Source of the DNA: Heptranchias perlo
Lineage: Eukaryota
Length of the DNA: 64,000 bases
Direction of reading: 5' to 3'
Assembly: GCF_035084215.1 (NCBI RefSeq)
Contig: NC_090353.1
Coordinates: 37,882,001-37,946,000 of the forward strand
Shown piece after piece: positions 14,350 through 60,387 of the stretch (position 1 is the first letter of the stretch; each line of letters opens with the position of its first letter). Under the pieces are notes generated by a model. The model made no database searches. It saw only the letters and a list, made by a program, of their open reading frames with translations, and was not told the DNA's origin. Both the position numbers and the translations under genes were made by a program.

Positions 14350-14428
14350 ATGGACGTCTCACTGCTTTCTCAGACGCTCAATGTCTTCACTGCTTTGCTC
14401 TCATCTGCTGGAGCCTGCTGCTCACAAG
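14350..14428 (+). CDS. PAR4-like receptor copy 1, exon 1 (signal peptide)
   Basis: MDVSLLSQTLNVFTALLSSAGACCSQ+G, phase-1 donor AAG|gttaga. Homologous to exon 1 of copies 2 and 3 (MD...LLS.A..C.S); TATA-like ttaaatata about 55 nt upstream. Confidence 0.72.
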
Positions 14429-15420: not shown

Positions 15421-16233
15421 CTTTCCTGAGGTCACATCAACAAGAAGCAAAAGAATCAGCAGGAAAGTACTTGTACTACAAGAGAATAAAATTCCTGAAA
15501 GAAATGGTTTGGGGGAGGCTTTTGGTGATGTGTACTCATTTTTAAGGGTTAGCCTGAGTGTTATCAGTGTTTTGTAGATTTCCTAAGTTTCAATTGAAAC
15601 TTGGAAGCAGATCCTGGTCGGTGAGCAGATATTCAGTGAAAGGCAACGTTTCAATGTGGATTGGCAGAAGGACAGGTTCATGTTGGGCAAATGAACAGTG
15701 AGACGTGACAGGTTGAACTGATTTAACCACAGCACTGGGAGAAGGTGACACTGGATAGGAGGAGGAGACATTGATATATTAAGATTTCACACATGGGTCA
15801 AGGGCTGAGGCCATTTGCTCTTTGTCGCTGCTGTTCAGTTGTGTCGGGAGGTGGGAGATCCTGTTACTTGAGTCCGCTGTCTTTGACGGTCTCTGCTGCC
15901 TCTCCTTAACTAGTCTTTCAACAGAGAAAAGTGAACACGTGGACAAATAAATAGTGTGAGTATTGGTGAGGACAGTTTGATGTTCATTAAGGCACTGGGT
16001 GCTATTTTACGCACAAGAAATGTCTATCATGATGAAAGGAATATTATTGGAGACACAAATTGTAATAATGTATTTGAGATCCTACCGCTGGATGGAATTG
16101 AGCACAGTGCAGTTAATTAAAGGCGTGTGTTGTACACTAAAATAAACTGACCAATCCTCAAGTCCCAGGGTATAGTTTACACCAACAGGAAGACGAGCTC
16201 CAAAATGACAAAAAAAATCTTTTTTTATTTCAG

Positions 16234-17318
16234 AATCTTCGCTATTTGAATTTCAAGATGTTATTAATCCAATCACAAACTCAACTAATAATTCTGCAAT
16301 AATTCAAAATGTGCTGAGTGAATCACCAAGATATTATCTGACCAGTTCTGTCACCACGGTGATGATTCCTGCCATTTCCAGCATCATCTTTGTCATTGGT
16401 CTCCCAGCCAATGGGCTGGCTCTTTTGGTTCTGGTCACCAAGGTCCAGAGAATGCCTTCCACCATCTTCCTGATGAACCTGGCGACTGCTGATCTTCTCC
16501 TGATCCTAGTGCTGCCGTTCAAAATCCACTATCACTTCCTGGGCAATGACTGGCTCTTTGGTGAGGGTCTGTGTCGGACAATGACCGCCTTCTTCTATGG
16601 GAACATGTACTGCTCCATCCTGCTCCTCACCTTCATCAGCATCGACAGATACTTCGCTCTGGTCCATCCATTCTTCTCCAAACGCTTCAGGGACAATACG
16701 TTTGCCGTTGGTGCCTGTTCGGTGATTTGGGCGCTTGTTGTACTCTCCGTGTTACCGTTTCTCCTCCAGAGGCAGACGTACCCAATCCAGGATCTAAACA
16801 TCACCACCTGCCATGATGCCTTGCCAGGAAACCTGCAGTCTGGTTATTTCTTCTATTACTTTGTGTGTTTGGTTGTGTTTGAGTTTCTCATTCCCTCTCT
16901 TGTTACTATATTCTGTTACGTGTCTATAATCAAAACATTGATGATTAATGAAGGTAAATATGCCAAAGCTGTAAGGACCATAATTCTAGTGCTGATAGTG
17001 TATGTGGTGTGTTTCACCCCCAGTAATATAATCCTCCTCATCCACCACTCTGAGTATCACCTCACACATTCCAGTGACCTGTATTTCTATTATATGATCT
17101 GCCTGGCACTCAGCACCTTCAATAACTGCATCGACCCTTTCATCTACTACTACATCTCCGAGGAGTTCAGGGACAAAGTGAGAAGTTTGATCTGGTTTTG
17201 CAAAGAAACAAAAGATGAAGATTCAAGAAAAACAGCCCAGAAACTCCTTCTGGCCAACATCACATCAGGATCTAGACCAAAAGCACCAGTAGGAGATCTT
17301 GAACGAGGGCAGCTGTAG
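16234..17318 (+). CDS. Protease-activated receptor 4-like GPCR copy 1, exon 2 (7TM); spliced 387 aa
   Basis: Acceptor tttatttcag; in-frame stop at 16206 excludes an upstream extension. Motifs PANGLAL..PST..LMNLATADLLL, YGNMYCSILLL, DRY, TTCHDALP, DPFIYYYISEEFRDKVR; the last two best match PAR4/F2RL3. Confidence 0.93.
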
Positions 17319-18447
17319 GTCCATAAGGAGACAGACCATTAGCATCACTTCTTGCAACATTAAACCCGATACTGGCTGTAACTCCTGGTGCATTCAGCAA
17401 ATATTGGAAATGAAGAACAAACCTTTTAATGAAGGACTTCACCACACACTAAGCTGGTGGAACTTAAGTGAACGCTACTTTGCGTCTTGTGTCAGGCAGA
17501 CTGTTCCCTACTCCCCTCCCATGATTACTGGTCCTCTGTAATATACGTAGCTGCTGCTCATCATCATCATTCAGATGTTGTAACAAAATTGCTGATGAAA
17601 TCATGTCACCAATTCGCTCCCATTTCTCTATCCACCAATAGAGCGCCTCTCTTTGAGACACCCAATATGGTCAAACTTTCCTCATTCCTTTGATTTTTTT
17701 TCTTACCAACTCGTTGCTGTGAAGAGAGGACAGCAAATGCCCCAATAAATCACCATATCACCTCGAACCCTACAGGTCATCAACCAGGATTCAACTGGCC
17801 AGGTGGTAGTTGGACGTTTCTCACTCACTGTCAAACTGGAGGGGGAGAGCAGGCACCTCAAAACTCCACTGATGGGGCGAGCGTTACAAACCACATCCCA
17901 CATCATTGGATCATGGCCGCTGACTAAACACTCTGGGGGCTGGCGCACTTTGCCTGCTGTTCTTTAAAATGGCTGGAATTAATCGCTGAGTCCGTACACG
18001 CTAAATAACACTGAAGGTGCTAACTCTGTGTGGAACATACCCACTCAAATACACTCACTCTACCTGTTACTACAGATGACCTATATTCAGATTCTAATCA
18101 TTTACAGCATGGAGATAAAAGCCAGTACATCTGGCATAGCTGGTTGTTTCAGTGAGTAACTAAGCCACACCGATCAGTAAGACCCTGATTTGATCTCCAG
18201 TCTGTGCTGAGTTGGCCGATAACAGGGATGGTGGCAGTAGGGACGGTACAATTGATCGCAGTGCCCAGGATTCCCAGTCCCGGTCACTATCCATTAATCC
18301 CACTAAAAAGTGTGGGTGCGGACGGATATTAGGCAGGGACAGAATCCATCTTAACTGCGACGCTTCTATGGTTAAATAGTCTGCTGATACTCACCACCTG
18401 GGCTCACACATGAAGAATGGTCACTTGGAGGAGATACAAGATTAGCT

Positions 18448-19412
18448 GAGAGTCAGTGCCTTCAGGAGCGATTGGGACCTGTACCCTAGTGAGAGTCAGT
18501 GCCTTCAGGAGTGATTGGGACCTGTACTCCAATGAGAGTCAGTGCCTTCAGGAGCAATTGGGACCTGTACACCAGTGAGAGTCAGCGCCTTCAGGAGCGA
18601 TTGGGACCTGTACTCCAATGAGAGTCAGTGCCTTCAGGAGCAATTGGGACCTGTACACCAGTGAGAGTCAGCACCTTCAGGAGCAATAGGGACCTGTACT
18701 CCAATGAGAGTCAGCGCCTTCAGGAGCAATAGGGACCTGTACTCCAATGAGAGTCAGCGCCTTCAGGAGCGATTGGGACCTGTACCCCAATGAGAGTCAG
18801 CACCTTCAGGAGCAATAGGGACCTGTACTCCAATGAGAGTCAGCGCCTTCAGGAGCGATTGGGACCTGTACCCCAATGAGAGTCAGCACCTTCAGGAGCA
18901 ATAGGGACCTGTACTCCAATGAGAGTCAGCGCCTTCAGGAGCGATTGGGACCTGTACCCCAATGAGAGTCAGCACCTTCAGGAGCAATTGGGACCTGTAC
19001 ACCAGTGAGAGTCAGCACCTTCAGGAGCAATAGGGACCTGTACCCCAATGAGAGTCAGCACCTTCAGGAGCAATTGGGACCTGTACACCAGTGAGAGTCA
19101 GTGCCTTCAGGAGCAATTGGGACCTGTACCCCAATGAGAGTCAGCACCTTCAGGAGCAATAGGGACCTGTACTCCAATGAGAGTCAGCGCCTTCAGGAGC
19201 GATTGGGACCTGTACCCCAATGAGAGTCAGCACCTTCAGGAGCAATAGGGACCTGTACTCCAATGAGAGTCAGCGCCTTCAGGAGCGATTGGGACCTGTA
19301 CCCCAATGAGAGTCAGCACCTTCAGGAGCAATAGGGACCTGTACTCCAATGAGAGTCAGCGCCTTCAGGAGCGATTGGGACCTGTACCCCAATGAGAGTC
19401 AGTGCCTTCAGG
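18448..19412. repeat. 43-bp minisatellite, about 22 copies
   Basis: Unit gagagtcagcgccttcaggagcgattgggacctgtaccccaat. Confidence 0.95.
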
Positions 19413-20529
19413 AGAGGGAAAATTAGCTGAATAAAGAAATGGGGGGAAAACTGAATTTACGTGGGAGATTAGCATGTGGTGTTAAGACAATCCCTATGGG
19501 CCCTGGCTCTGTCTGCAATTCTATGTTGGACTGTGTGGATCAGTCACCAACTGAGCCAGCAAATGGGTTGAAATTGCTGTCTTTGCAGAATAAATTTTTC
19601 AAGTACAACCTTCTGTCTGGATTTTTTTATTGAAATGCATTGCAATCTTTGAAAAGTCAGTTTTAGTTTCAGCGAGTTAGGTCCTGACCAGTTAAATGAC
19701 TGTTATTAACCTTCTCTGCACCTTAAACACACACTATTGGGACCAGTTGGGCAAGAAAGGCCATTGGGCAGATCAGGCAGAGCTGGATAAACACACAATG
19801 GGTCAGACATCCATATCACAGCTCAATAAAAACACAAATAGGGAGTTTCAAAGGCCAGTCTTTCCCCGAGGTCCACAGAAGGCAGTGTAACTGCAGACGA
19901 GCAGCTGCGTCCACCCCATGTCTGCCCTCCTTATCCCAGACAATGTTATTGGATTGGAATATTTTTAGTGATGTCAATGGAAATGAAACAGTGGCGAGAT
20001 GTACAATGAGGACTGATCACCTGTTTTACACAATTGCCCAAAGTCAAGGTTACCCCCGCTCTCTCCCCAGGGCAAACTTTTGGAGAGGATTTTTTTTAAT
20101 GTTTGAGAAAAGTTATAATCAACACATAAATTCACACAAAGGCACCAAATGGGAGGGGTCTGTAACCAATGCTCTGTCCTCTAACTGATTCTGGTATTTG
20201 GGATGATGCTCTCAAGGCAATAGTTTTGCCCTGAAATGAATTAAAATGAGGGCAGCCTAAACCAATCTCCAGATTCCCGAATATTTGTTGTGTTACTTTT
20301 CCTGATATGACTTTGCATCAGGAGCAGATTTGGGAACTCTGCCTGTTGATTATCTGCGATGGACATTTCCTGCAATTTTAATGTAGACAGCGTAATGTTT
20401 ACACCAGTTTTCCTGCTGTCTGGCTGTAACATTCTGGAGGATAAAGGGCAGACACACAGCAGACCTGAAGGTTAGTCACAGCCAGACCATAGCTCACAGC
20501 AACAGGACAGCCTGTGCATCTCGGCAGCT

Positions 20530-20611
20530 ATGGACTTCCCTGAACTCTCCCGAAGACTCTTTCTCTTTACTCTGTTACTCTCACCTGCAGCAGTCTGCCA
20601 GTCGAAAGAAG
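20530..20611 (+). CDS. PAR4-like receptor copy 2, exon 1 (signal peptide)
   Basis: MDFPELSRRLFLFTLLLSPAAVCQSKE+G; 82 nt; donor AAG|gtaaga; phase 1 joins exon 2 in frame. Confidence 0.85.
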
Positions 20612-21351
20612 GTAAGACTTTTATTGGTTTACTTCACTCCTTCTCTCCTGTAATATATTTTAGATTTATCGGGGAGTCTGTGCGCCTGCAACTCAGAAAA
20701 CCATTTTGAGAACACACTGGAGCCAGTTCAGGAGCTCTCCCTGTTACATCCCTGAAACAGTCTGGGTTGAAGCATATTTTTGATTCCAAATAATTTTAAG
20801 ATGGTGAAGCTGTGTGAGATTTTATCAATAAACGGGTGATTTCCCCAGTTCCTCCGTCTTGTTGCAATTATATCTCTGCTTCTCAGGAGTCGCTCATCTC
20901 TGGTGCCTTTGGCCGACATCATGCGCTCATTTCAGCTTTGTAACATCAGTTTAGCAGCTGGCAGGTTGCAGTTTCCAGCTGCAAGGTAAGACTGTCCCGG
21001 GGTGAGGTGGAGCTGAAGCAGATGTTACAACTGCTGTCGACAGAATTCTTACTCTGCAATTGTTAAATGTTTCATTAGAGTGACACGCACTCGATGGGTT
21101 GATGCTGTCGGTGATGGATTACAGCAAACTGCTTTTTATCCTGCCCCAGTGACATGTCCTACAGCAACGTTATTCCCCTTTAAGAGCATTCGAGCAAGTT
21201 CTGTTCAGAACGTATTTACAGCACACAAAGGCTAGCATTTCCTCCTCACCAGCAGGGTCCTTTTACGATCAGTTTGGTCAAATATAGATGGGTAGATTTT
21301 AAGTTGCTGCCCGGGATCAGACACCCGTTAACAAAACCGCCTGATTTTCAT

Positions 21352-21675
21352 TTCATAGGAACAGGAGGAGGCCATTCAGCCCCTCGGGCTTGTTCCGCCA
21401 TTCAATTAGATCACGGCTGATCTGCAACTCAGCTCCATTTTGCCCACCTTTGCTCCGTATCCCTCGATACCGACAAAAATCTATCGATCTCAGTCTTGAA
21501 AGCTCCAATTGATCCCCAGCATCCACAGCCTTTAGGGGGAGAGTTCCAGATTTCCACTCTCCTTTGTGTGAGGAAGTGCTTCCTGATTTCACCCCTGAAC
21601 AGCCTGGCTCTAATTTTAAGGTTCTGCCCCCTTGTCCTGGACTCCCCCCACCAGACGAAATAGTTTCTCTCTCTC
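21352..21675 (-). mobile_element. CR1 3' end
   Basis: CR1 3' UTR (gaatggcctcctcctgttcctatg); similar copy at 22915-23120. Confidence 0.7.
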
Positions 21676-21809
21676 TCTATTAAAAAGGGAAGTGGGTGAA
21701 TATTTGAAAGGACAGGGGAATGGGATGAAGTGGATGGATAGCGGACACGGGGAAGATGGGAATGGCTTCCTTCTGTGCTGTAAAATTTTAATTTAATGTT
21801 AACTGATGC

Positions 21810-22430
21810 AAGTTAATAAGGCCATAAAAATGCAAACCAAGCACTGGGGTTCATTTCTAGAGGGATAGAATTGAAAAGCAGAGAAGTTATGTTAAACATA
21901 TACAGAACCTTGGTTAGACCACACTTGGAGAACTGTGCGCAGTTCTGGTCTCCATATTATAAAAGGATATAGAGGCACTGGAGAAGGTGCAAAAAAGATT
22001 CACAAGGATGATACCAGAACTGAGAGGTTATAACTATCAGGAAAGATTGAACAGGCTGGGGCTCTTTTCTCTAGAAAAGACAAGGCTGAGAGGTGACCTG
22101 ATAGAGGTCTTTAAAATTATGAAAGGGTTTGATAGGATAGACGTAGAGATAATGTTTCACTTGTGGGGAGGCCATAAATATAAGATAGTCACTAATAAAT
22201 CCAAAAGAGTGGTGAGAATGTGGAACTCGCTCCCACAAGGAGTGGTTGAGGTGAATAGTGGAGATGGATTTAAGGGGAAGCTCGATAAACACATGAGGGA
22301 GAAAGGAATAGAAGGATATGCTGATAGGGTGAGATGAAGTAGGGAGGGAGGAGGCTCGTGTGGAGCATAAACACCGGGATAGACCAGGGGGGCCGAATGG
22401 CCTGTTTCTGTGCTGTAAATTCTTTGTAAT
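21810..22430 (+). mobile_element. CR1 3' fragment
   Basis: VQKRFTRMIP...RLRGDLIEVFKI ORF 21987-22337. Confidence 0.85.
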
Positions 22431-22601
22431 TTAAGGTAACTTTTGGGTCGATACAAATCTATCCCAAAAATGGATAATAAGAAGAAGTTGATAGATTCTT
22501 GTGGCTGATTTTGTATTCTGATTGGCTCTCGATCATTTTTACAAGCTTGATCAAGGACACTGTGAGTTGGATGTGGTAATAAATCCTTGCGCTTGAGGGG
22601 C

Positions 22602-22812
22602 TTTTTTTTTTATTCGTTCACGGGATGTGGGCGTCGCTGGCGAGGCCGGCATTTATTGCCCATCCCTAATTGCCCTTGAGAAGGTGGTGGTGAGCCGCCT
22701 TCTTGAACCGCTGCAGTCCGTGTGGTGACGGTTCTCCCACAGTGCTGTTAGGAAGGGAGTTCCAGGATTTTGACCCAGCGACAATGAAGGAACGGCGATA
22801 TATTTCCAAGTC
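22602..22812 (-). mobile_element. LINE family A 3' end
   Basis: Reverse complement of the family A tail, with polyT. Confidence 0.85.
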
Positions 22813-23185
22813 TGAATGGCCTGCTCCTGTTCCTCTGTAACTAAAGATGAAAAAATGCTTTTATTTGAAATTATCAGCTTATCCTCTATTCTCAGCACAT
22901 AATGGGTTTTTTTCATAGGAACAGGAGGAGGCCATTCAGCCCCTCCTGCCTGTTCCAACATTCAATTAGATCATGGTTCATCTGTACCTCAACTCCATTT
23001 CCCCGCCTTTGCTCCGTATCCCCTGATCCCCTCACCCAACAAAAATCTATCGATCTCAGTCTTGAAAACTCCAATTGACCCCCAGCACCCACAGTCTTTG
23101 GGGAGAGAGTTCCAGATTTCTAGTGCTTTACAACTTTAACTAGGAACTAAAACCCTAACATTAAAAAATCTTTCTTTTTGTGCAG

Positions 23186-24231
23186 ATTCCCCAAAAGCCA
23201 ATGGGAGAAGTTTCCGATTTTCTGTTGCTGGTCCCAACAATGTGCTGAATGAATCAGCATTGAATCACCTGACCAGTTCTGTTACCACGGTGATGATTCC
23301 TGCCATTTCCAGCATCATCTTGATTATTGGTCTCCCAGCCAATGGGCTGGCTCTTTTGGTTCTGGTCACCAAGGTCCAGAGAATGCCTTCCACCATCTTC
23401 CTGATGAACCTGGCGACTGCTGATCTTCTCCTGATCCTAGTGCTGCCGTTCAAAATCCACTATCACTTCCTGGGCAATGACTGGCTCTTTGGTGAGGGTC
23501 TGTGTCGGACAATGACCGCCTTCTTCTACGGGAACATGTACTGCTCCATCCTGCTCCTCACCTTCATCAGCATCGACAGATACTTCGCTCTGGTCCATCC
23601 ATTCTTCTCCAAACGCTTCAGGGACAATACGTTTGCCGTTGGTGCCTGTTCGGTGATTTGGGCGCTTGTTGTACTCTCCGTGTTACCGTTTCTCCTCCAG
23701 AGGCAGACGTACCCAATCCAGGATCTAAACATCACCACCTGCCATGATGCCTTGCCAGGAAAAGTGGACTCTGGTTATTTCTTCTATTACTTTGTGTGTT
23801 TGGTTGTGTTTGAGTTTCTCATTCCCTCTCTTGTTACTATATTCTGTTACGTGTCTATAATCAGGGCATTAATGGTTAGTGAACAGCAATTCGGGCAAGC
23901 TGTAAAGACCATGGTGTTAGTGCTGATAGTGTATGTGGTGTGTTTCACGCCCAGTAATATAATCCTCCTCATCCACCACTCTGAGCATCACCTCACACAT
24001 TCCAGTGACCTGTATTTCTATTATATGATCTGCCTGGCACTCAGCACCTTCAATAACTGCATCGACCCTTTCATCTACTACTACATCTCCGAGGAGTTCA
24101 GGGACAAAGTGAGAAGCTTGATTATTTGCAAAGAAACAAAAGATAAAGATTCAAGAAAAACGGCCCTTCAGCTGGTTCAGAGCAGCTCCTCCTCAGGGTC
24201 TGACACGAAGATATCAGTGAGGAGTATTTGA
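23186..24231 (+). CDS. PAR4-like GPCR copy 2, exon 2; spliced 375 aa; predicted cleavage ANGR/SFRFSV
   Basis: Acceptor tttgtgcag; reads DSPKANGRSFRFSVAGPNNVLNES... in frame with ORF 23242-24231; full 7TM motifs. Confidence 0.93.
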
Positions 24232-25951
24232 ATTCAGTACTTTGGTTACATGAAGGGGCTTAACCATTGAATTCGATCAACACAACTAAAGCCATGTGAT
24301 GGGCAGTAGTTTGGCAGCTTATTCAGGGACTCTGGAAATGCAGAAAGGCTTGTGGCTGAAACCGATCACTTGCTCAATGCATGAAATATACAACAGGAAA
24401 TCCTACTTGTCTTATTTGCATGTTTGTTTCATTTTGTAAGTGAACTTAACTCAGATATCAACTAATGCCAGGCTGCAGCTGGTGATTAACAATTGTCAGG
24501 TCAAACTCAGAAACAGTGCGCTTTCTGCAGACTAGAAATTAGATTAAAAATGAATTGAAAGCAATGTAGGTGTTGATCAGAGTGGGACGGGGGGGGGCGC
24601 CAATGAGTGATGACACAAATGGGGTAAAATGAGTCTTTAACGGGGGCAGGAAATGGGCCGTAGTGAAAGCTGTGCTCGTTTTACACGTGCCTGACATGGT
24701 CAAAAAAAGTGGTGGAAAAAGTTGAACTTTGCATGTTGAGGCTGTGGCGATTGATGAGGGGGGGCAGGGGGGGGCAGTGTGAGTGAACCACTCGCTGGAG
24801 CAGGTCAGGTACGTGTGTGTGTGAGGTCTATCGTCAGACTGGCACTATTCCACATTTACTGTGGGTGATTGTACTAAACTCCTGAGTGCACTTTTTAATG
24901 CAGCAGTTAATTCATTTTAAAGAGAGGAATGTTGCCTGATCCATGAAGGCATTTTACAGAAGTTACCCGCTTCTGAAAATCAGTCTATTTTCTGCATAGT
25001 GAAAGAATGAGAGATGTTAAAAGTGAATGAATATCACTCTGTTGTGTGACTCATGCCCAATTAACTTGTTTAGCTATTTGCCTCCAGGTTTGTGAGGCAT
25101 AAGCCTCTCGGTGTGGTTTGTGGATATGCCATCTTAGAGTGCTGTATGATCACTAGCGACCATGCCTGAAGGACCTGCTTCAGTGGGCAGGAGTCTCTTT
25201 TGTGGTTGGCTCATTGCTTTCAGAGGTGGTGAAGGGTTAGTTGGTGCCATAGAACAGCGACTGACATGACTGTGCTGCTGAACACATGGCTCTGCTGGAG
25301 GGCATCTCCCCACTGATCTGGTTGCAATCAACAGTTGCAGGGCACCAGGAATTTCCTCGGGACTTCTCCAGCTCTCTGCTGTAACTTTGGCACAAACTCT
25401 GCGTGCACATGTTAAACCGGGTTTCCGCAAACTTCTGCCAAGTTACAGCAGAAAGCGGGAGAAGTGCCCAGAAAGCTCCCGGTGTGGGCACTACGAGGAG
25501 TTAGAATCCCTGTAACATTCTGCGAGTAGGTTAAAGTTTGCTGTTATGCTTGATACTCCAAATAGCTTTTGTTTTCAGTATCTCAGCCCAATCTTGTTCA
25601 CTCCCTGTGCCCTGGAGCCTGCCCCTTGGATAGATTGGTTGCAAGGCCAGGAATTGACCAAAGAAGCATTTTCACCATATTTCAGCTATTGGTTCTATTG
25701 TGTGATCTCGATTTCAGAATGCAGAGGGGTGACGTTACTTGAGACCCTGATTTAGGATTTAACTACCAAACAAATTTATTAAACAGTGAAAGAATAAGGG
25801 GCCAAAATTCCAGGGTCACTGTTTCACTGCCAGAAGAGTGGCAGAGTGGGACTGTCAGATGCCAATCACGACCCAGAGTGTGGGGATGGGATCATTGGAG
25901 TGTTCAGGGCGGGGCCCGGGTGTTAGGCCCATTCCTGCCACTCTGACATTA

Positions 25952-26190
25952 GTAAACAATTTTACAACACCAAGTTATAGTCCAGCAATTTTATTTTAAA
26001 TTCACAAGCTTTCGGAGGCTTCCTCCTTCGTCAGGTGAACGATGTGAAAATCGTTCACATCGTTCACCTGACGAAGGAGGAAGCCTCCGAAAGCTTGTGA
26101 ATTTAAAATAAAATTGCTGGACTATAACTTGGTGTTGTAAAATTGTTTACAATTGTCAACCCCAGTCCATCACCGGCATCTCCACATCAT
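25952..26190 (+). mobile_element. Penelope-like element remnant with inverted pseudo-LTR and 13-bp TSD
   Basis: Perfect 97-bp arms 25952-26048 and 26054-26150 with a 5-nt spacer; direct repeat cactctgacatta at 25939-25951 and 26191-26203. Confidence 0.75.
26063..26101 (+). ncRNA. Minimal type I hammerhead ribozyme motif (mirror copy on - strand at 26001-26039)
   Basis: TTCAC-CTGACGA-A-GGAGG-aag-CCTCC-GAAA-GC-TT-GTGAA: CUGAnGA and GAAA core, 5-bp helices I and II, palindromic AGCT in place of helix III. Confidence 0.65.
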
Positions 26191-26912
26191 CACTCTGACA
26201 TTAAGTAAGGAAGCTAAAGTTATTGATAAGGGATAAGTCAATAAAATCCTCCTTATATGGAGTAGTATTTTAATTTTTATATAATGATGTAATGCAGAAT
26301 TGTGAGGATTGTCACATAGAAGAAGTGAGAGGGACGTATAAAGACCGGCTGTTTGTAATAAGTATTTGGATTGGTTAAAGGTCCAAGATACCGAGCTTAG
26401 AATTATGATAAGTTTCAATAACTAACCTACCATCACTAGGTGTAAGTATTACTGTTTAAGTGTGCATTAAGTACTAGTGGATGTACAGTATCCTTAATAA
26501 ATCGGTGACACCTGATTTTCAATGTATAAGAACCTTATTGATTTGAGGAGTAAATTATAAATAAGAGCCCTCCACTACCAATGGCTACATGGTGCTATCA
26601 ACGAGGCTTTCGGGAAGCCAGTCCCTTGGTACAAGTAACGGGACTCCCTCCACTGATCCCCTCCGGCCCGTGGGGAAAGTGACACCGCAGCAATTCAAGG
26701 CTGCAGTGAGCTGATTGACCCATTGACCTGCAGATTAGCTGATCGGGCAAATGTCACCAGTAATGGTTTGAAATAAGTCAGTGACATAGACATTCAGCAA
26801 AGGGTGACCTTAATCACAACAGCCAGCACTGACCCTTCGCTGGAGGTCGACTGAAGGTCAGGCACCAGTAAACAGCACAACTATGTCACTTCCTTTTAAT
26901 CGCTGCACCATT

Positions 26913-28523
26913 GAACATAAGGACATAAGAAATATGAGAAGGAGCAGGACATCCGGCCCCTCGAGCCTGCTCCGCCATTCAATAAGATCATGGCTGATCT
27001 TCTACCTCAACTCCATTTTCCTGCACTATCCCCACATCCCTTGATGCCTTTAATATCTAGAAATCTATCAATCTCTGTTTTGAATGTACTCAATGACTGA
27101 GCCTCCACAGCCCTCTGGGGTAGAGAATTCCAAAGATTCACCACCCTCTGAATGAAGAAATTTCTCCTCATCTCAGTCCTAAATGGCCGACCCCTTATTC
27201 TGAGACTGTGACCCCTGGGTCTAGACTCCCCAGCCAGGGGAAACAGCCTCCTTGCATCTACCCTGTCGAGCCCTGTAAGAATTTTGTATGTTTCAATGAG
27301 ATCACCTCTCATTCTTCTAAACAAGAGAATACAGGCCTAGTCTACTCAATCTCTCCTCATACGACAATCCCGCCATCCCAGGAATCAGTCTGGTGAACCT
27401 TCATTGCACTCCCTCTATGGCAAGTATATCCTTTGTTAGGTAAGGAGACCAAAATTGTACACAATACTCCAGGTGCGGTCTCACCAAGGCCCTATATAAT
27501 TGCAGTAAGACATCTTTACTCCTGTACTCAAATCCTCTTGTAATAAAAGCCAACATACCATTTGCCTCCCTAATTGCTTGCTGCACCTGCATGTTTGCTT
27601 TCAGTGACTCATGTACAAGGTCACCCAGGTCCCTTTGAACATCAACATTTCCCAATCTCTCACCATTTAAAAAATACTCTGCATTTCTGTTTTTCCCACC
27701 AAAGTGGATAACTTCACATTTTTCCACATTATATTCCATCTGCCATCTTCTTACCCACTCATTTAGCCTGTCTGTATCCTCTTGAAGCCTCTTTGCATCC
27801 TCCTCACAACTCAACATTCCCACCTAGTTTTGTGTCATCAGCAAACTTGGAAATATTACATTTGGTTCCCTCATCCAAGTCATTGATATAGATTGTGAAT
27901 AGCTGGGGCCCAAGCACTGATCCCTGCGATACCCCACTAGTCACAGTCTGCCAACCTGAAAAAGACCCGTTTATTCCTACTCTCTGTTTTCGGTCTGTTA
28001 ACCAATTCTCAATCCATGCCAGTGTATTACCCCATCCACCACCCTAAACATTCACTCCTTTCACCACCGGCGCACCATGGCTGCAGTGTGCACCATCCAC
28101 AGGATGCACTGCAGCAACTCGCCAAGGCTTCTTCGACAGCACCTCCCAAACCCACGACCTCTACCACCTAGAAGGACAAGAGCAGCAGGCACATGGGAAC
28201 AACACCACCTGCACGTTCCCCTCCAAGTCACACACCATCCCGACTTGGAAATATATCACCGTTCCTTCATCGTCGCTGGGTCAAAATCCTGGAACTCCCT
28301 TCCTAACAGCACTGTGGGAGAACCGTCACCACACGGACTGCAGCGGTTCAAGAAGGCGGCTCACCACCACCTTCTCAAGGGCAATTAGGGATGGGCAATA
28401 AATGCCGGCCCCGCCAGCGACGCCCACATCCCAAAGAACGAATATATTAAAAAAATTACCCCCAATTCCGTGTGTTCTAATTTTGTTCACCAACCTCCTG
28501 TGTGGGACCTTATCAAAAGCCTT
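26913..28523 (-). mobile_element. CR1 3' half, interrupted by a LINE family A tail (28033-28455, + strand)
   Basis: ORFs 27007-27324 and 27401-27823; CR1 resumes after the polyA with a short duplication (ttaccc). Confidence 0.88.
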
Positions 28524-28529
28524 TGATGG

Positions 28530-28772
28530 ACCTGCCTTCAGCTGCCTCGGGCCCTAAGCTCTGGAATTCCCTCCCTAAACCTCTCCCCCTCTCTCTCCTC
28601 CTTTAAGATGCTCCTTAAAACCCACCTCTGTGACCAAGCTTTTGGTCACCTGTCCTAATATCTCCTTATGCGGCTCGGTGTCAAATTTTGTTTGATAATC
28701 GCTCCTGTGAAGCACCTTGGGACGTTTTACTACGTTAAAGGCGCTATATAAATGCAAGTTGTTGCTGTTGTT
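28530..28772 (+). mobile_element. L2 3' end
   Basis: Matches 12930-13165. Confidence 0.8.
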
Positions 28773-29077
28773 GCAGCTGTCTCTCCCAAACACTACATCG
28801 AGAGATCAATCCGACATCTTCGATTACACTGTCAGAAAAACTCGGAATCCTGCAACCAGAACACCAGTAGAGTTGCCAACTCTGGTTGGAGGCATTCCTG
28901 GAGGTTTGATCACGTGACATTCTGACCACATGACATCTGATCAGGTGAAATCTGATCACATAACTTGTAAAATTTTATTGCATTTATCTGATAACGAGAT
29001 TGGGTCTCTGGCTGAGTATTCACTGCAGCAGCTGCTGAGCGACACGTAACAAGAATCAGAGGGCGTCCCACGAGTAA

Positions 29078-29602
29078 GGGAAGAGGGAAAACCGAGGGGG
29101 GAATGAGGGGAAACTGAGGGAGGGGGAAGAGGGGAAACCGAGGGAGAGGGAAACTGAGGGGGGAAGAGGGAAAACTGAGGGAGGGGAAGAGAGGAAACCG
29201 AGGGGGGAAAGAGGGGAAACCGAGGGAGCGGGAAGAGGGGAAACTGAAGGGGGAAGAGGGGAAACCGAGGGCAGGGGAAGAGGGGAAACCGAGGGAGGGG
29301 GAAGAGGGGAAACTGAAGGGGGAAAGAGGGGAAACCGAGGGTGGGGGAAGAGGGGAAGCTGAAGGGGGAAGAGGGGAAACCGAGGGCAGGGGAAGAGGGG
29401 AAACCGAGGGGGGGAAAGAGGGGAAACCGAGGGTGGGGGAAGAGGGGAAACTGAAGGGGGAAAGAGGGGAAACTGAGAGAGGGGGAAGAGGAGAAACCGA
29501 GGGGGGGTAATCTGAGGGTGGGGGAGAGGGAAACCGAGGGAGGGGGAAGAGGGGAAACTGAGGGAGGGTAATCTGAGGGTGGGGAAGAGGGGAAACCGAG
29601 GG
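29078..29602. repeat. G/A-rich minisatellite (gaggggaaaccgaggg...)
   Basis: Variable 20-24 bp purine-rich units. Confidence 0.85.
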
Positions 29603-29825
29603 CCTGACTCCCTCTCCCCGATTGCCGAGACTCCCGACTCTCCAGCCTCCTCCCGACTGCACTCTACGCAGTTACCACTTTGCCGGGACAGTGGGAAATT
29701 TAAATTGCTGATTTCCTGGGCTTGGGGGGAGGAATCTCTGATTCCAGGAAACTCCCGGTCATTCTGGGAGGTTTGGGAACTCTGAGCACCAGTCACCATA
29801 ATCCGATTTTTCCTGCGCCCACTCA

Positions 29826-30088
29826 GAATCATAGAATCATAGAAAGGTTACAGCACGGAAGGAGGCCATTCGACCCATCGAGTCCGTGCCGGCTCTATGC
29901 ACGAGCAATCCAGCTAGTCCCACCCCCCCGCCCTATCCCCGTAGTCCTGCAGATGTTTTCCTTTCAAGTACTTATCCAGTTCCCTTTTGAAGGCCATGAT
30001 TGAATCTGCCTCCACCACCCCCTCGGGCAGTGCATTCCAGATCCTAACCACTCGCTGGGTAAAAAAGTTTTCCCTCATGTCACCTTTG
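29826..30088 (-). mobile_element. CR1 3' end
   Basis: (agaatcat)n tail and CR1 3' sequence. Confidence 0.75.
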
Positions 30089-30735
30089 CCTTGCGGCCCA
30101 TTCTTTGGGCGACATTATATTGAACAGACTAACAGGGTTCTCTCTCACCACCCAGGGGCTCCACGGATAATGTACTGTCTGTACTGAGCTAAACAGACCA
30201 GGAAATTCTCAGCAATCTCCTGACCGTTAACTTTCATGATACGCTCAAGTCCCGGGTTGCATCGTAAACCCACAAACTGACTCAGAGAGGAGTGCTACCA
30301 ACTGAGACAAGTGATCACTTGGACTCCTTGCCTGTTGTAGTTTAGTTTGACAATATGCTGTAGCACTCGTTTTATTCTTTGTCGTGTGACTGTTGCTTTT
30401 CTGTTTGTAGCAAAAATAAACACAGTGTAAAGTATTTTTTAAAAAGTCAACGGGAAGAATCCCGAGTTTTGTGAGGTAATTTTCCCTCCTCTGCTAGTTC
30501 TGGTCAGCACCAGCGGATAACGCTGTGGTTTCCTGATGTTGCTGCGAGTTGTTTGATAAAGTGCAGGATCAACATCTGTACATGACGAGCTCCTCATCCA
30601 AATGCTCCGGGTTTCCTGCAGCTTCATTGTAACCTCCTAAAATAAAAAGGAGAAAGAGACTGATAAAAAAAACTCACATCAGTTAATCCAGAGCCAGGCT
30701 GTCGCCCAGAGGGCAAACGGTGCAGATCGGCAACT

Positions 30736-30817
30736 ATGGACCTGTCCCGGCTGACCTGTGCACCCACTCTCCCACTCCTGTTACTCTCATGTGCAATGCT
30801 CTGTTACTCCCAGGAAG
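30736..30817 (+). CDS. PAR4-like receptor copy 3, exon 1 (signal peptide)
   Basis: MDLSRLTCAPTLPLLLLSCAMLCYSQE+G; 82 nt; donor AAG|gtaagacttt shared with copy 2; 5' context tcggcaRctATGgac shared with copy 2. Confidence 0.85.
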
Positions 30818-31086
30818 GTAAGACTTTGTGCATCACCCTTTCTTCTCAAAGTGTGTCTAGTCTGGCTGGAGCTGCCTCTGCGTCTCAAAATATTTTGAGC
30901 ATGTGAATTATTTTTTTTGTACCTTCCAGCTGAGATTGGTTGGCAGAAATCCATAAAAGCTGCCTGTGAGCCAGACATTGGTCAGAATGGGAGAGCCTCA
31001 AAACATGCACCCACACATTCCTGCTGCACCTCAACAGTGCTCTACCTGAACAGCATCGAAACCACTGGAGTGCTTAATGATACATA

Positions 31087-31995
31087 ATAGAGGGAGCTTT
31101 ACTCTGTATCTAACCCTGTACCTGCCCTGGGAGTGTTTGATGGGACAGTGTGGAGGGAGCTTTACTCTGTATCTAACCCTGTACCTGCCCTGGGAGTGTT
31201 TGATGGGACAGTGTAGAGGGAGCTTTACTCTGTATCTAACCCTGTACCTGCCCTGGGAGTGTTTGATGGGACAGTGTAGAGGGAGCTTTACTCTGTATCT
31301 AACCCGTGCTGTACCTGCCCTGGGAGTGTTTGATGGGACAGTGTAGAGGGAGCTTTACTCTGTATCTAACCCGTGCTGTACCTGCCCTGGGAGAGTTTGA
31401 TGAGACAGTGTAGAGGGAGCTTTACTCTGTATCTAACCCTGTACCTGCCCTGGGAGTGTTTGATGGGACAGTGTAGAGGGAGCTTTACTCTGTATCTAAC
31501 CCGTGCTGTACCTGCCCTGGGAGTGTTTGATGGGACAATGTAGAGGGAGCTTTACTCTGTATCTAACCCTGTAACTGCCCTGGGAGTGTTTGATGGGACA
31601 GTGTAGAGGGAGCTTTACTCTGTATATAACCCGTGCTGTACCTGCCCTGGGAGCGTTTGATGGGACAGTGTAGAGGGAGCTTTACTCTGTATCTAACCCG
31701 TGCTGTACCTGCCCTGGGAGCGTTTGATGGGACAGTGTAGAGGGAGCTTTACTCTGTATCTAACCTGTGCTATACCTGCCCTGGGAGTGTTTGATGGGAC
31801 AATGTAGAGGGAGCTTTACTCTGTATCTAACCTGTGCTATACCTGCCCTGGGAGTGTTTGATGGGACAATGTCGAGGGAGCTTTCCTCTGTATCTAACCC
31901 GTGCTGTACCTGCCCTGGGAGTGTTTGGTGGGACAGTGTGGAGGGAGCTTTACTCTGTATCTAACCCATGCTGTACCTGCCCTGGGAGTGTTTGA
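31087..31995. repeat. 63/67-bp minisatellite, about 14 copies, in copy 3 intron
   Basis: Unit gggagctttactctgtatctaaccc(gtgc)tgtacctgccctgggagtgtttgatgggacagtgtaga. Confidence 0.95.
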
Positions 31996-32877
31996 TTCTG
32001 GCACTGGACAAATCTTCCATTCTCAGTTAAGATGAGATATTGCCCATCATTCGGGTATGTTTAGAATGTTTGACTGTATTGGGGTGTTTAGATATTGTAC
32101 ATTCCCAGTATTTGCTGGACAATCCGATGGTTTGGGGCAGTCGAGAGCTGAAAATCGCCCCCAGTGTCTTGCACTAATTCAATATCTTTTCCTTGCTTTT
32201 ATTCTCAGCCTCTCAGTATAAAAACCCAGAATCCCATTTCTATTTTTATGACCTTTTCCCCTTGATTCCCACCTTCGAAGTTCTGTTGAGTTTTACCAGG
32301 TGGGATACGCTTCTTTCACTGTTCTTTTCCCCAAAGTTTCCTACTTCACATCGCTCCGCAGTGAACTGTATCTGACCGATCCGCCCACTCCACTAAACCA
32401 GTCCTTGTTCTCCTGCAACCTCCTGCTTTCTTCCTCCCGGTTTGAAAGTCCACCCCAGTTTGGTATCATCAGTAACTTCAGTAGCAATCCTCCTGTGCCT
32501 GCGTCCTAATCATTTATGTGAATGGGAAACAAAGGAGCTAAAAGCACAGACACAATGGGCTGAATGGCCTCCTTCTGTGCTGTAAGATTCTATGATTCTG
32601 GATCCCTGGGACACACCACAACCCACAGTCTGCCATTCCAAAAACACCCATTTGGCCCCACATTTTATTTTCCATTCCCCTCACTTTTCCTGTATCCATG
32701 CAGCTGTCTCACTTTTCGAACTGTTGACAGACAATAAAATAACCTGATGGAAACAGTAAGTATAACAAAGATCTAAAGACAGGACTGGAGCAGAAAATAG
32801 GCACTGAAGGAATTTCAAAATATTAAAAACTATTATTGCACTGTGATTATTAACATCCAGTTTCCTCTTGTCTGTAG

Positions 32878-33944
32878 GAGGTTCAGGAAATGAAGCAAAT
32901 GGAAGAAGTCTATTCATCAATATTGTTACTTCAGCAAAGCACTCAAACATTTCTATGAATGTGTTAGATAAATCAGCCAAGCATCACCTGACCAGCACTG
33001 TCACCACAGTCATGACCCCTGCCTTTTACATCATCATCTTTGTCATTGGTCTCCCAGCCAATGGGCTGGCTCTTTTGGTTCTGGTCACCAAGGTCCAGAG
33101 AATGCCTTCCACCATCTTCCTGATGAACCTGGCGACTGCTGATCTTCTCCTGATCCTAGTGCTGCCGTTCAAAATCCACTATCACTTCCTGGGCAATGAC
33201 TGGCTCTTTGGTGAGGGTCTGTGTCGGACAATGACCGCCTTCTTCTACGGGAACATGTACTGCTCCATCCTGCTCCTCACCTTCATCAGCATCGACAGAT
33301 ACTTCGCTCTGGTCCATCCATTCTTCTCCAAACGCTTCAGGGACAATATGTTTGCCGTTGGTGCCTGTTCGGTGATTTGGGCGCTTGTTGTACTCTCCGT
33401 GTTACCGTTTCTCCTCCAGAGGCAGACGTACCCAATCCAGGATCTAAACATCACCACCTGCCATGATGCCTTGCCAGGAAACCTGCAGTCTGGTTATTTC
33501 TTCTATTACTTTGTGTGTTTGGTTGTGTTTGAGTTTCTCATTCCCTCTCTTGTTACTATATTCTGTTACGTGTCTATAATCAAAACATTGATGATTAATG
33601 AAGGTAAATATGCCAAAGCTGTAAGGACCATAATTCTAGTGCTGATAGTGTATGTGGTGTGTTTCACCCCCAGTAATATAATCCTCCTCATCCACCACTC
33701 TGAGTATCACCTCACACATTCCAGTGACCTGTATTTCTATTATATGATCTGCCTGGCACTCAGCACCTTCAATAACTGCATCGACCCTTTCATCTTCTCC
33801 TACATCTCCGAGGAGTTCAGGGACAAAGTGAGAAGCATAACATCTGCTAGTAAAGATAAGAAGAGTGAAGACTCCAGAAAAACAATCCTTCAAACAGACA
33901 GCTCATCAGCATCGAGAACAATCGCATCACTAAAATGTATTTAA
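32878..33944 (+). CDS. PAR4-like GPCR copy 3, exon 2; spliced 382 aa; predicted cleavage ANGR/SLFINI
   Basis: Acceptor cttgtctgtag; GGSGNEANGRSLFINIV...; full 7TM; TM7 reads DPFIFSY. Confidence 0.93.
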
Positions 33945-36699: not shown

Positions 36700-38743
36700 C
36701 TGCAAACTCCACTCACCCAGTGTGAACAAACTCCACTAACCCAGTGTGAACAAACTCCACTCACCCAGTGTGAGCAAACTCCACTAACCCAGTGTGAGCA
36801 AACTCCACTAACCCAGTGTGAGCAAACTCCAGGAGCCCAGTGTGAGCAAACTCCACTAACCCAGTGTGAGCAAACTCCACTAACCCAGTGTGAGCAAACT
36901 CCAGGAGCCCAGTGTGAGCAAACTCCACTAACCCAGTGTGAGCAAACTCCACTAACCCAGTGTGAGCAAACTCCAGGAGCCCAGTGTGAGCAAACTCCAC
37001 TAACCCAGTGTGAGCAAACTCCACTAACCCAGTGTGAGCAAACTCCAGCAGCCCAGTGTGAACAAACTCCCGGAGCCCAGTGTGAACAAACTCCCGGAGC
37101 CCAGTGTGAGCAAACTCCAGGAGCCCAGTGTGAACAAACTCCACTAACCCAGTGTGAGCAAACTCCACTAACCCAGTGTGAGCAAACTCCAGGAGCCCAG
37201 TGTGAGCAAACTCCACTAACCCAGTGTGAGCAAACTCCACTAACCCAGTGTGAGCAAACTCCAGCAGCCCAGTGTGAACAAACTCCACTAACCCAGTGTG
37301 AGCAAACTCCAGGAGCCCAGTGTGAGCAAACTCCAGGAGCCCAGTGTGAACAAACTCCACTAACCCAGTGTGAGCAAACTCCACTAACCCAGTGTGAGCA
37401 AACTCCACTAACCCAGTGTGAGCAAACTCCAGGAGCCCAGTGTGAACAAACTCCACTCACCCAGTGTGAACAAACTCCACTCACCCAGTGTGAACAAACT
37501 CCACTAACCCAGTGTGAGCAAACTCCACTAACCCAGTGTGAGCAAACTCCACTAACCCAGTGTGAGCAAACTCCAGGAGCCCAGTGTGAGCAAACTCCAC
37601 TAACCCAGTGTGAGCAAACTCCACTAACCCACTGTGAGCAAACTCCACTAACCCAGTGTGAGCAAACTCCAGGAGCCCAGTGTGAGCAAACTCCACTAAC
37701 CCAGTGTGAGCAAACTCCACTAACCCAGTGTGAGCAAACTCCAGCAGCCCAGTGTGAACAAACTCCACTAACCCAGTGTGAGCAAACTCCAGGAGCCCAG
37801 TGTGAGCAAACTCCAGGAGCCCAGTGTGAACAAACTCCACTAACCCAGTGTGAGCAAACTCCACTAACCCAGTGTGAGCAAACTCCAGGAGCCCAGTGTG
37901 AGCAAACTCCACTAACCCAGTGTGAGCAAACTCCACTAACCCAGTGTGAGCAAACTCCAGCAGCCCAGTGTGAACAAACTCCACTAACCCAGTGTGAGCA
38001 AACTCCAGGAGCCCAGTGTGAGCAAACTCCAGGAGCCCAGTGTGAACAAACTCCACTAACCCAGTGTGAGCAAACTCCACTAACCCAGTGTGAGCAAACT
38101 CCACTAACCCAGTGTGAGCAAACTCCAGGAGCCCAGTGTGAGCAAACTCCACTAACCCAGTGTGAGCAAACTCCACTAACCCAGTGTGAGCAAACTCCAC
38201 TAACCCAGTGTGAGCAAACTCCAGGAGCCCAGTGTGAGCAAACTCCACTAACCCAGTGTGAGCAAACTCCACTAACCCAGTGTGAGCAAACTCCAGCAGC
38301 CCAGTGTGAACAAACTCCACTAACCCAGTGTGAGCAAACTCCACTAACCCAGTGTGAGCAAACTCCAGGAGCCCAGTGTGAGCAAACTCCACTAACCCAG
38401 TGTGAGCAAACTCCAGCAGCCCAGTGTGAGCATACTCCACTAACCCAGTGTGAGCAAACTCCAGCAGCCCAGTGTGAACAAACTCCCGGAGCCCAGTGTG
38501 AACAAACTCCCGGAGCCCAGTGTGAACAAACTCCACTAACCCAGTGTGAGCAAACTCCAGCAGCCCAGTGTGAACAAACTCCAGCAGCCCAGTGTGAACA
38601 AACTCCACTAACCCAGTGTGAACAAACTCCACTAACCCAGTGTGAGCAAACTCCAGCAGCCCAGTGTGAACAAACTCCACTAACCCAGTGTGAACAAACT
38701 CCACTAACCCAGTGTGAGCAAACTCCAGCAGCCCAGTGTGAAC
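36700..38743. repeat. 24-bp minisatellite, about 85 copies
   Basis: Unit cccagtgtgagcaaactccactaa with variants (aggag, agcag, cggag). Confidence 0.95.
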
Positions 38744-39319
38744 AGTCAAACCTCACCACTGACCAGTGCTTCTAAAGGCCAGGATTGCTCCCAAAGTGCA
38801 AAGCTGTCATCTCCTGTAGCTACAGCCCATTCACCCTCCCCAGTGCTGCTAAATGTCAGCGGGTGCATTCCATGGGGATTCTCCTGCTTTGTTGGTAGAG
38901 CCACAGAAACCCCAGGGAAATGACAGAAATTAAATGCATTCCTTAACGAACTAAGAGCCTCTTCCTTTACCTCAGTAATTATCTCTTTTAAACTTACGAT
39001 TTATGTCAGTGTGGGTGCTCAATGGGAACAGCCATTGGAGAACCAAAGAGCATCCTGAGGCCAAGAAAATAGCAGATTCTCAGGCTTATCTTGAGCAATG
39101 TCACAGGAGGTGTGCTAGTAGAGATTGAGCAAGAGAGGGTGGAGAGAAAGGCAAGGAGAGAAAGACAGAGACCCGCAGAAAGAGGGCGATGGGAAAAAGA
39201 GAGAGGGCCTGGGAGAGATGCCGAGCTCACAGCCGGAGACACGGGTAGATGTGGGGGAGCTCACTCTCTTCCATCACCAGCCTGTGTTGATCCCTAACTC
39301 TCAGCCTCACTGCTTCTCC

Positions 39320-39530: not shown

Positions 39531-40355
39531 CACAGGTAAATAAACAACAAAAACTGGAACCCTGAATCGAAAAACTGAAACCTAGAAAATCTCAATGGCC
39601 TCAAGATCTTTCAGACCTGGGTGGGTTTTAAGTCAGATTGCAGATAGTTTCTCCACCGGGTCACGATGATTTCTTCAGCATTATTGTATTATTTAACATT
39701 TTCACATATGGAATACAGTATTTTGCTGTTAACCAGATTTTGTTATGTTAAAATAAACTTACTCACTTTATGTAAAAGCCTTTTTCCTGTAACTTTAATA
39801 AATGATAATCAAACCCTCCTTTGTCTCTTCCTGCTCAGTTTTACTGGACTGATTTCTGAACAATTTTGTTTCATTTCTGCGAGGTTAAAATAACCCCCTC
39901 TCTCGCCAGAGTGAAGATTAGCCTGAGTCCCACGCTGTTTAAACTTTCAACAGGGACAATTTTCAACAGACTGCTTCCATCGGGAGAGAGACGGACAAGC
40001 CAAGCACACGGCCCACCCAGTCCCGGCAGGCAGGGACCCCAGTGCAGAGCGAGTCATTGCAAATTATTATCCCAGGGAGGGCTGTGCAGGGTCGCACATC
40101 GGAGGGGTCGATTTTTGGAGAGCCTGAAGGAGCGTTACTGTGTTCCTCTTCTTTTTAACCCCTTCAAACACAGCCCTGCTCACTCACTCACTCAGTATAT
40201 GCGGCCAATGACCTGCTGCATCAATCCCTGGTGCTTTACAGTTACCCAACACCCGAATATCCTTCTTCTTCAAAATGCTACATCAGTGGGCAAAACAAGT
40301 ATGGTGGCACTTTTCTGAATCTGTGGGAAGCCCCCATGACGCCCCTGTGACGAAC

Positions 40356-41290: not shown

Positions 41291-41417
41291 CACGAATTGG
41301 CACTTCTTTTTTATTCATTCATGGGAAGTGGGCATCACCTGGCAAGGCCAACATTTATTGTCCATCCCTAATTGTCCTTGAGAATGTGGTGGTGAGCCGT
41401 CTTCTTGAACCACTGCA

Positions 41418-60305: not shown

Positions 60306-60387
60306 ATGAATTGTAATTTGCTGGTACCAGCTCTGCTACTGACACTTTCAACCTTCTGGTGTCGGGCAGCTACTCCAGACTATGACG
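60306..60387 (+). CDS. Probable exon 1 (signal peptide) of a fourth PAR-family gene; exon 2 lies beyond the window
   Basis: MNCNLLVPALLLTLSTFWCRAATPDYD+G; 82 coding nt, phase 1, donor G|gtgagactttt. Same length, phase and donor context as PAR copies 2 and 3. Confidence 0.6.

Follow-up and report, generated by a model that had tools for sequence, protein, structure and literature searches.

Mosaic near-identity of neighboring protease-activated receptor genes in Heptranchias perlo and evidence for recurrent gene conversion of their transmembrane core

The window analyzed here is a 64,000-nt stretch of the Heptranchias perlo genome (NC_090353.1, 37,882,001-37,946,000; positions are counted from the window start) that contains a tandem group of genes for receptors of the protease-activated receptor (PAR) family. 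Three long open reading frames (ORFs; 16209-17318, 23140-24231, and 32847-33944) constitute exon 2 of three same-strand genes, which are spaced 7-17 kb apart and are referred to as copies 1, 2, and 3 (orthogroups A, B, and C, respectively). It is very probable that these genes are ancient paralogs of the PAR4 branch that repeatedly overwrite each other's seven-transmembrane (7TM) core by non-reciprocal gene conversion, with the ends of each gene remaining gene-specific. The pattern itself is demonstrated by identity that is tract-shaped and includes silent sites, by the directionality of the exchanges, and by their independent repetition across lineages.

The closest likeness is found between copies 1 and 3. 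As reported in a first-pass annotation of this DNA, the converted blocks of these genes (16382..17185 and 33032..33835, + strand) differ only at 16598, 16699, 17146, and 17149, that is, at 4 positions over 804 bp (1 synonymous, 3 replacement). The abrupt divergence described outside the block is equally clear, as 21/75 bases and 9/19 synonymous sites differ just upstream and the C-tails are identical at 13/35 positions at the protein level. The longest identical run shared by copies 1 and 3 is 446 bp, a length reached by 0/20000 random scatterings of 26 differences over 879 bp. When polymorphic sites are permuted, copies 1/3 (0/20000) and copies 1/2 (p 0.003) give significant results and copies 2/3 do not (p 0.57). 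Copy 2 is identical to copy 1 in runs of 203, 233, 94, and 130 bp, interrupted mainly by two divergent islands, and core identity across the three copies is 92-99%. A blastn comparison (word size 7) does not align the introns and flanks; apart from exon 2, its matches are limited to repeats and to short, weak hits in or close to exon 1.

The pairwise resemblances listed in the first-pass annotation are all present in the DNA. Copies 1 and 2 share the sequence before transmembrane helix 1 (TM1), the DNT and DPFIYYY motifs, and the start of the tail (17197..17238 in copy 1, 24125-24166 in copy 2, + strand; 40/42 bases). Copies 2 and 3 share tac at 16598, the ANGR motif, and the best-matching pair of first exons (z 9.3 vs 7.1 and 6.0), while copies 1 and 3 share NLQ in extracellular loop 2 (ECL2) and intracellular loop 3 (ICL3). 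The claim that these informative sites conflict is correct as to the letters and fails as evidence of conflict, since each is a singleton among three sequences: 16598 and 16699 are CpG-to-TpG changes, each private to one copy, and 17146/17149 are private to copy 3. Single shared sites were rejected as evidence because three sequences cannot conflict at one site, and the evidence for conversion rests on tract structure and on other species. Copies 2 and 3 also agree at 15/17 bases around the cleavage site (ANGRS; 23195-23211 vs 32893-32909), a form absent from the other B or C orthologs retrieved, which reflects either an old, short tract or the parallel adaptation of both sites to a single protease.

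The evolutionary history of the termini and the core was compared using an alignment of shark and ray proteins sorted into orthogroups A (9 species), B (17), and C (19), plus D, E, and F. The A/B/C trees exclude duplicate isoforms, the B/C chimera P0013, both Callorhinchus proteins, the unnamed P0041, and groups D-F. In the termini tree (114 columns), A is separated from B+C with a support of 100, and C (100) and B (78) are each recovered across sharks and rays. The tree of the core, built on 242 columns, joins B with C within four galeomorph lineages: lamniforms (99), catsharks (100), the zebra shark (99), and bamboo/epaulette sharks (100). Each topology is rejected by the other partition, the termini tree by the core (log-likelihood difference, dlnL, 626; approximately unbiased test, p-AU, 2e-5) and the core tree by the termini (dlnL 891, p-AU 6e-5). 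Furthermore, a single clade of C orthologs is rejected by the core (p 1e-46), and a single clade of H. perlo A+C is rejected by the termini (p 1e-4). The H. perlo cores are 74-86% identical to their own orthologs, and the H. perlo termini are closer to ray orthologs than to their neighbors in the same genome. The expectation that cores would group by species and termini by ortholog is thus realized at the level of shark lineages, with each partition rejecting the other's tree, and the proposal of old duplicates with a homogenized coding core, as in concerted evolution, agrees with ortholog-grouped termini and lineage-grouped cores.

Within species, the B and C cores are 91-95% identical in 9/9 sharks having both and 69-72% identical in 7/7 rays. 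Whole-core conversion is seen in 9/9 sharks with B and C and in 0/7 rays; in the rays, within-species identity is only slightly elevated, and only over about TM2-TM3. Conversion of the entire core is a shark trait that is largely lacking in rays. Some individual records combine parts of different genes. The Pristiophorus protein P0013 has a B-type N-terminus, a C-type tail, and a half-and-half ECL2, and is either a B/C fusion via unequal crossover or an assembly/annotation chimera. Transcripts from the zebra and whale sharks (P0036, P0154, P0073) join C exon 1 to D exon 2 or B exon 1 to F exon 2, as a result of either read-through splicing over the array or mis-mapped RNA reads.

Comparisons among orthologs also provide direction and timing. 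A C-type N-L-I/M motif at the end of TM1 is kept in 18/18 other C orthologs, and copy 3 carries the A/B motif at this position. Because copy 3 is alone among 19 C orthologs in lacking the C-type motif, the TM1 end of this gene was overwritten by A/B sequence. Core changes that separate close species are common to B and C in 5/5 shark pairs (5, 3, 2, 3, and 3 changes; the last three pairs share species, and the pairs include two Chiloscyllium species), and the termini of the same five pairs contain 0 changes common to B and C. Conversion is recurrent, down to congeneric splits. The suggestion that it is ongoing holds in the sense of this recurrence in 5/5 shark pairs, and conversion happening now is not demonstrated.

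A mutation rate of 7e-10 per base per generation is given for the epaulette shark in the available text of PMC10587355. At this rate, the one synonymous difference in about 198 sites between copies 1 and 3 (0.005; 95% 0.0001-0.028) implies an age of about 3.6 million generations for their identity. Allowing for CpG hypermutability lowers this estimate. Since sharks mutate slowly, one synonymous difference still permits millions of generations. The shark-ray split is dated at over 250 million years ago, and conversion is recent relative to the age of the paralogs, which are older than this split.

Several points weigh against repeated core conversion. The orthogroups were initially sorted by eye using the termini, and DNA was taken from H. 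perlo only, with other species represented by annotated proteins and hence without cross-species rates of synonymous substitution (dS). A single clade of A orthologs is not rejected by the core (p 0.31), a result that is expected because the lone shark A present is nearly identical to its neighbor, and a single clade of B orthologs is rejected only marginally (p 0.047). The H. perlo A, B, and C cores do not form a strict clade, as B groups with its horn shark counterpart (82), a placement presumably caused by its islands. In rays the cores sort by ortholog and 4/4 close species pairs show no change shared by B and C, neither of which the mechanism alone explains. For the tract from ECL1 to TM3 that copy 1 has in common with the distant paralogs D and E (16548..16672, + strand), the identical runs in H. 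perlo (45 and 39 aa) do not exceed some cross-species runs (up to 54), so the support for this tract comes from the contig graph and from residues specific to the lineage. Finally, the sequencing runs used as an assembly check possibly derive from the assembly's own sample, and contig assembly drops bubbles.

The assembly check used contigs (not reads) of four runs from one sample, placed on copy 1 at 80% likeness. The near-identity is limited to a repeat-like block in a window with gaps and many repeats, and together with the possibly shared sample this would suit identical cores produced by assembly or polishing collapse, which the first-pass annotation had named as one threat to its reading. 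The run contigs give no sign of collapse. Unique flanks have a depth of 7.8-9.7 and core contigs a depth of 14.8-25.7 (2-3x the flanks), and the total depth at 16742-16893 (19.6-21.4) is too low to include a hidden, divergent core present in single copy. Contigs break at 16382, 16548, 17156, and 17185, where the assembly copies start or stop being identical; both alleles at 16598 are present; and the variant contigs, among those listed, can be assigned to copy 2 or to D, E, or F. Since the same pattern also occurs with other lineage-specific residues in eight other shark species, collapse is highly improbable. In 933 + 545 bases of unique flank, the contigs of the DNA runs depart from the assembly once, by C/T at 15647, probably a heterozygous site.

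The core identity of 92-99% could also be attributed to a recent tandem duplication after which the termini diverged very rapidly. This scenario can be set aside almost entirely, as introns and flanks are unalignable, synonymous sites upstream of the block are about half saturated, and the termini group by ortholog, nearer to rays than to their neighbors in the same genome. Strong purifying selection or convergence might hold 7TM proteins alike, and TM2-TM3 is highly conserved between species regardless; however, the identity extends to synonymous sites (2 differences in 198, one of them at the edge of the block), orthologs from other species show 14-26% divergence over the core, and the shared residues are lineage-specific, so that this explanation is refuted and scarcely credible. 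Repeated unequal crossing-over, with expansion and contraction of the array, could have made the mosaic in place of non-crossover conversion. The sawshark record with a B-type N-terminus and a C-type tail fits a single crossover, and an A ortholog is not among the galeomorph shark proteins retrieved. That record could nevertheless be an assembly/annotation chimera, and the H. perlo genes are own-ortholog at both ends and foreign only inside, which needs two crossovers per tract; non-crossover conversion fits the small islands inside the genes and the tracts of roughly 100 bp. Unequal crossing-over is consequently an unlikely source of the mosaic, albeit the least improbable of the four alternatives.

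Repeated gene conversion of the core suggests the following mechanism. A, B, and C are members of a tandem PAR4-branch array that predates the shark-ray split. The paralogs could pair ectopically through their single long coding exon because the whole 7TM region lies in one exon and the copies are 7-17 kb apart on the same strand. Non-crossover copying would then proceed in several directions in tracts of about 100-800 bp: copy 3 received its TM1 end from A/B, the ECL2 segment of copy 1 resembles that of shark C and not ray A, copies 1 and 2 have in common a tract that reaches into the tail, and shorter tracts extend to D and E (TM3) and to F (TM7). Exon 1, the ectodomain with the cleavage site, and the C-tail would remain gene-specific because conversion ends where homology ends. 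Under this proposal, a single receptor core would be combined with protease-sensing N-termini and regulatory tails that differ from gene to gene. A shared core could serve several ligands because the contacts in ECL2 and at Tyr 7.32 are invariant and the pre-TM1 contacts lie outside the converted block.

Exchange with the more distant paralogs is seen in two places. Contigs of the D and E types differ through 16547 and again from 16673, with one common contig between, although isolated D/E differences within 16548-16672 may be masked because contig assembly drops bubbles. D and E have lineage-specific TM2-TM3 residues in common with A-C, and TM2-TM3 (residues 120-189) shows 84-94% cross-family identity in sharks for A-E pairs, as obtained from window identities and the alignment. 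The second tract extends from TM7 to helix 8 (17072..17185 in copy 1, + strand) and is common to paralog F, which has 41 identical residues with copies 1 and 2, vs at most 27 cross-species. The F-type contig joins at 17072, and the depth climbs to 25.7. Third-position GC, in 30-codon windows, is highest (0.78-0.81) at 16548-16757 and 17088-17177, where tracts are common to the largest number of paralogs. Low values occur in ICL3 (0.34, copies 1 and 3) and in the tails (0.26-0.46), a pattern that hints at GC-biased conversion.

The proteins match database records named Heptranchias perlo PAR2-like or PAR3-like. The Pfam 7tm_1 domain is found in 3/3 copies, and the best 8 of 94 PDB matches are PAR4, PAR2, or PAR1. 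All three copies have two coding exons with the signal peptide in exon 1, and the two-exon structure is described as the PAR norm in the available text of PMC4771116. In a 42-sequence tree, the array forms one chondrichthyan clade (support 95) that is sister to tetrapod and ray-finned PAR4 with moderate support (77). The PAR1, PAR2, and PAR3 clades (100 each) exclude the array and contain a separate Pristis PAR1 and Callorhinchus PAR3. Moreover, the named non-chondrichthyan records among the best 120 matches are called PAR4, the others being unnamed or hypothetical. Judging from these sequence comparisons, the array belongs to the PAR4 (F2RL3) branch, with moderate support for the sister relationship, and the database names are misleading because it branches with PAR4 and outside the PAR1, PAR2, and PAR3 clades.

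A predicted cleavage site, Arg followed by S/T/G/V at the aligned position, is found in 17/17 B and 19/19 C proteins. The Pro-Gly ligand start of tetrapod PAR4, whose records read R/AIPG, R/SFPG, and R/SLPG, was not found in copies 2 (R/SFRF) and 3 (R/SLFI). The pocket residues, numbered by alignment to PAR2, are C-H-D-x-L in ECL2 together with Tyr 7.32 and Tyr 7.35; they are present in all three copies and in 8/8 ray A proteins. In the portions of PMC11443083 and PMC12033368 available, structures of PAR1 and PAR2 show the tethered ligand contacting H-D-x-L in ECL2, Tyr 7.32, and pre-TM1 residues of the N-terminus, largely through main-chain contacts and invariant ECL2/TM7 residues.

Orthogroup A is distinguished by the lack of this cleavage site. 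An Arg/Lys site at the family position was not found in 5/5 A proteins with a full N-terminus, copy 1 included; four more A records begin inside exon 2 and were not counted. The ectodomain of copy 1 is free of K/R from the signal peptide to an Arg directly before YYLT, and ray A ectodomains contain other K/R residues. Orthogroup A (16234-16340 in copy 1; P0020, P0151, P0149, P0145) has an intact ORF and intact pocket residues despite the missing Arg site. Ray A proteins are little converted past TM3, yet the ECL2 and TM7 pocket residues are kept in 8/8, and copy 1 carries the core of copy 3 without the Arg site typical of B and C. Members of orthogroup A may be activated by a non-trypsin protease, serve as a cofactor, or be activated in trans, and activation of PAR2 in trans by cleaved PAR1 is noted in the text of PMC4771116 that was accessible. 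It is conceivable, although doubtful, that A is a ligandless PAR, preserved intact in a sevengill shark and in rays, that is trans-activated by a neighbor's cleaved N-terminus, with conversion in this shark keeping the ECL2-containing core matched to copy 3 and selection guarding ECL2 and ICL3 of copy 2. If so, the array would be a protease-sensor panel on one interchangeable core, and conversion would maintain a lock-and-key fit across genes. An A ortholog was not among the retrieved lamniform, carcharhiniform, orectolobiform, and horn shark proteins, owing to loss or missing annotation, and a search with the ectodomain of copy 1 alone gave 13 candidates, none of which scored, and is uninformative on A in other sharks.

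The two divergent islands of copy 2 are ancestral B sequence that escaped conversion. The ECL2 island (KVD vs NLQ; 23763..23769, + strand) is 7 bp long with 4 replacements and 0 silent differences, and is flanked by 233 and 94 identical bases. The island at the end of TM5 and in ICL3 (23864..23917, + strand), an ancestral B-type loop, is 54 bp long with 14 replacement and 6 silent differences. The difference of D231 in B vs Q231 in C is also found in lamniform sharks and several rays, and the B/C difference in ECL2 persists in 3/9 sharks (H. perlo and two lamniforms). In ICL3 the B/C difference persists in 1/9 sharks and is homogenized in 8/9 with both genes. The islands are lost in catsharks and carpet sharks, and in lamniforms the B-type ICL3 has been copied into C. 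Permanent selection on the ICL3 island was rejected, since the loop is homogenized in 8/9 sharks. The ECL2 island as a proven ligand contact was likewise rejected, as it aligns to PAR2 233-235, beyond the last listed contact, L230, and as E260, T261, L262, and L263 are absent from the available text of PMC11443083. That the ECL2 island survives in two lineages although its flanks were converted hints modestly at selection; a rival explanation is that clusters of mismatches block short conversion tracts and thereby spare the island. ICL3 influences Gq coupling in PAR1 according to PMC11443083. By analogy, the ICL3 island of copy 2 could be functionally relevant.

Conversion between adjacent G protein-coupled receptor (GPCR) genes is already known; its occurrence in PARs was not found described in the literature covered. 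In mammalian CCR2/CCR5 and CCR1/CCR3, conversion in several lineages independently is reported to affect mainly transmembrane regions and sometimes extracellular loops (PMC2880985, text available in part). The shark array resembles these pairs in that adjacent class A GPCR paralogs undergo independent, lineage-wise conversion, but differs in the replacement of almost the entire 7TM region (804 bp), in the apparent exchange of tracts among as many as six paralogs, in the origin of these paralogs before the shark-ray split, and in an N-terminus that is not converted and bears the agonist itself. The chicken FFAR2 cluster, a chicken-specific expansion, is described as homogenized through extensive conversion, from which sites near the ligand groove may have escaped under selection (PMC4453067, likewise in part). 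It is similar as a conversion-homogenized GPCR cluster with possible escapes, whereas shark and ray orthogroups persist and exchange is confined to the core. Exon 5 of the primate red/green opsins is a peak of divergence under conversion in the available part of PMC3924837, and the ECL2 and ICL3 islands of copy 2 have the same shape; unlike that peak, the islands are lost in other sharks, so a lasting selective need is not demonstrated.

The F2RL3 locus is prone to local duplication in gar, coelacanth, frog, and birds, as stated in the parts of PMC6504862 and PMC4771116 available. The shark genes share with PAR4 and its local duplicates two exons, the 7TM region, and the same branch of the PAR tree, and differ from tetrapod PAR4 in their ligands and in the absence of a cleavage site from orthogroup A. 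In the available text, the word 'shark' is absent from both sources and 'conversion' is absent from PMC4771116, a paper on PAR evolution; the whale shark genome paper, also available in part, makes a single passing mention of PARs. Neither a shark PAR array nor gene conversion among PARs was found described in the literature covered, which omits most subscription journals. The array offers a clear vertebrate case of domain-restricted concerted evolution that has lasted since before the shark-ray split, with a built-in contrast between sharks, which convert the whole core, and rays, which convert little past TM2-TM3. It also provides natural chimeras for PAR biology, namely one core with different ligands and tails, ECL2 and ICL3 islands, and a paralog without a cleavage site. 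Finally, it serves as a warning that core-based trees, clustering at 90%, and annotation mislabel these genes (PAR2-like/PAR3-like); databases merge the paralogs as isoforms, and copy 1 is hidden within the cluster of copy 3.

The first exons of the three genes begin at 14350, 20530, and 30736, and GT/AG ends are found in 3/3 copies. The exons listed here are on the + strand. In copy 1, the coding part of exon 1 for the signal peptide (14350..14428) matches the initial 26 aa of P0121 and is followed by a GT donor, and exon 2 (16234..17318; ectodomain, 7TM, C-tail, and stop) is supported by the ORF, a match to the remainder of P0121, and Pfam 7tm_1 at 1.2e-53. Contigs of two presumed-RNA runs begin at the exon-2 acceptor of copy 1, one of them with 28 letters that lie elsewhere. 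In copy 2, exon 1 (20530..20611) matches the start of P0002 and has a GT donor, and exon 2 (23186..24231) contains the predicted cleavage site ANGR/SFRF and the homogenized core with its two islands. In copy 3, exon 1 (30736..30817) matches the start of P0001, and exon 2 (32878..33944), with the predicted cleavage site ANGR/SLFI, is 100% identical to P0001. Exon 1 of the next array member, of orthogroup D, lies at 60306..60387 (P0026 match), with exon 2 outside the window. Three further paralogs on the same record (P0026, P0056, and P0046) extend the group to a six-gene array, A-F. No flanking genes beside the array were identified in the 64-kb window.

The remainder of the window is rich in repeats. 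Several copies that resemble long interspersed nuclear elements (LINEs) and bear reverse transcriptase are found at 2472-3551, 41269-44441, and 52691-54244 and at 6665-7777, 9476-10221, and 26913-28033, and are 87-96% alike within each of two families. Two assembly gaps (356 N) are located around 1700-1900 and 12115-12270. Minisatellites occupy 18447-19414, 31067-31996, 36702-38744, 40348-41304, 46609-48162, 48884-50059, 57717-58319, 60748-62188, and 62776-63445; one of these sits in the intron of copy 3, and the minisatellites yield long spurious ORFs.

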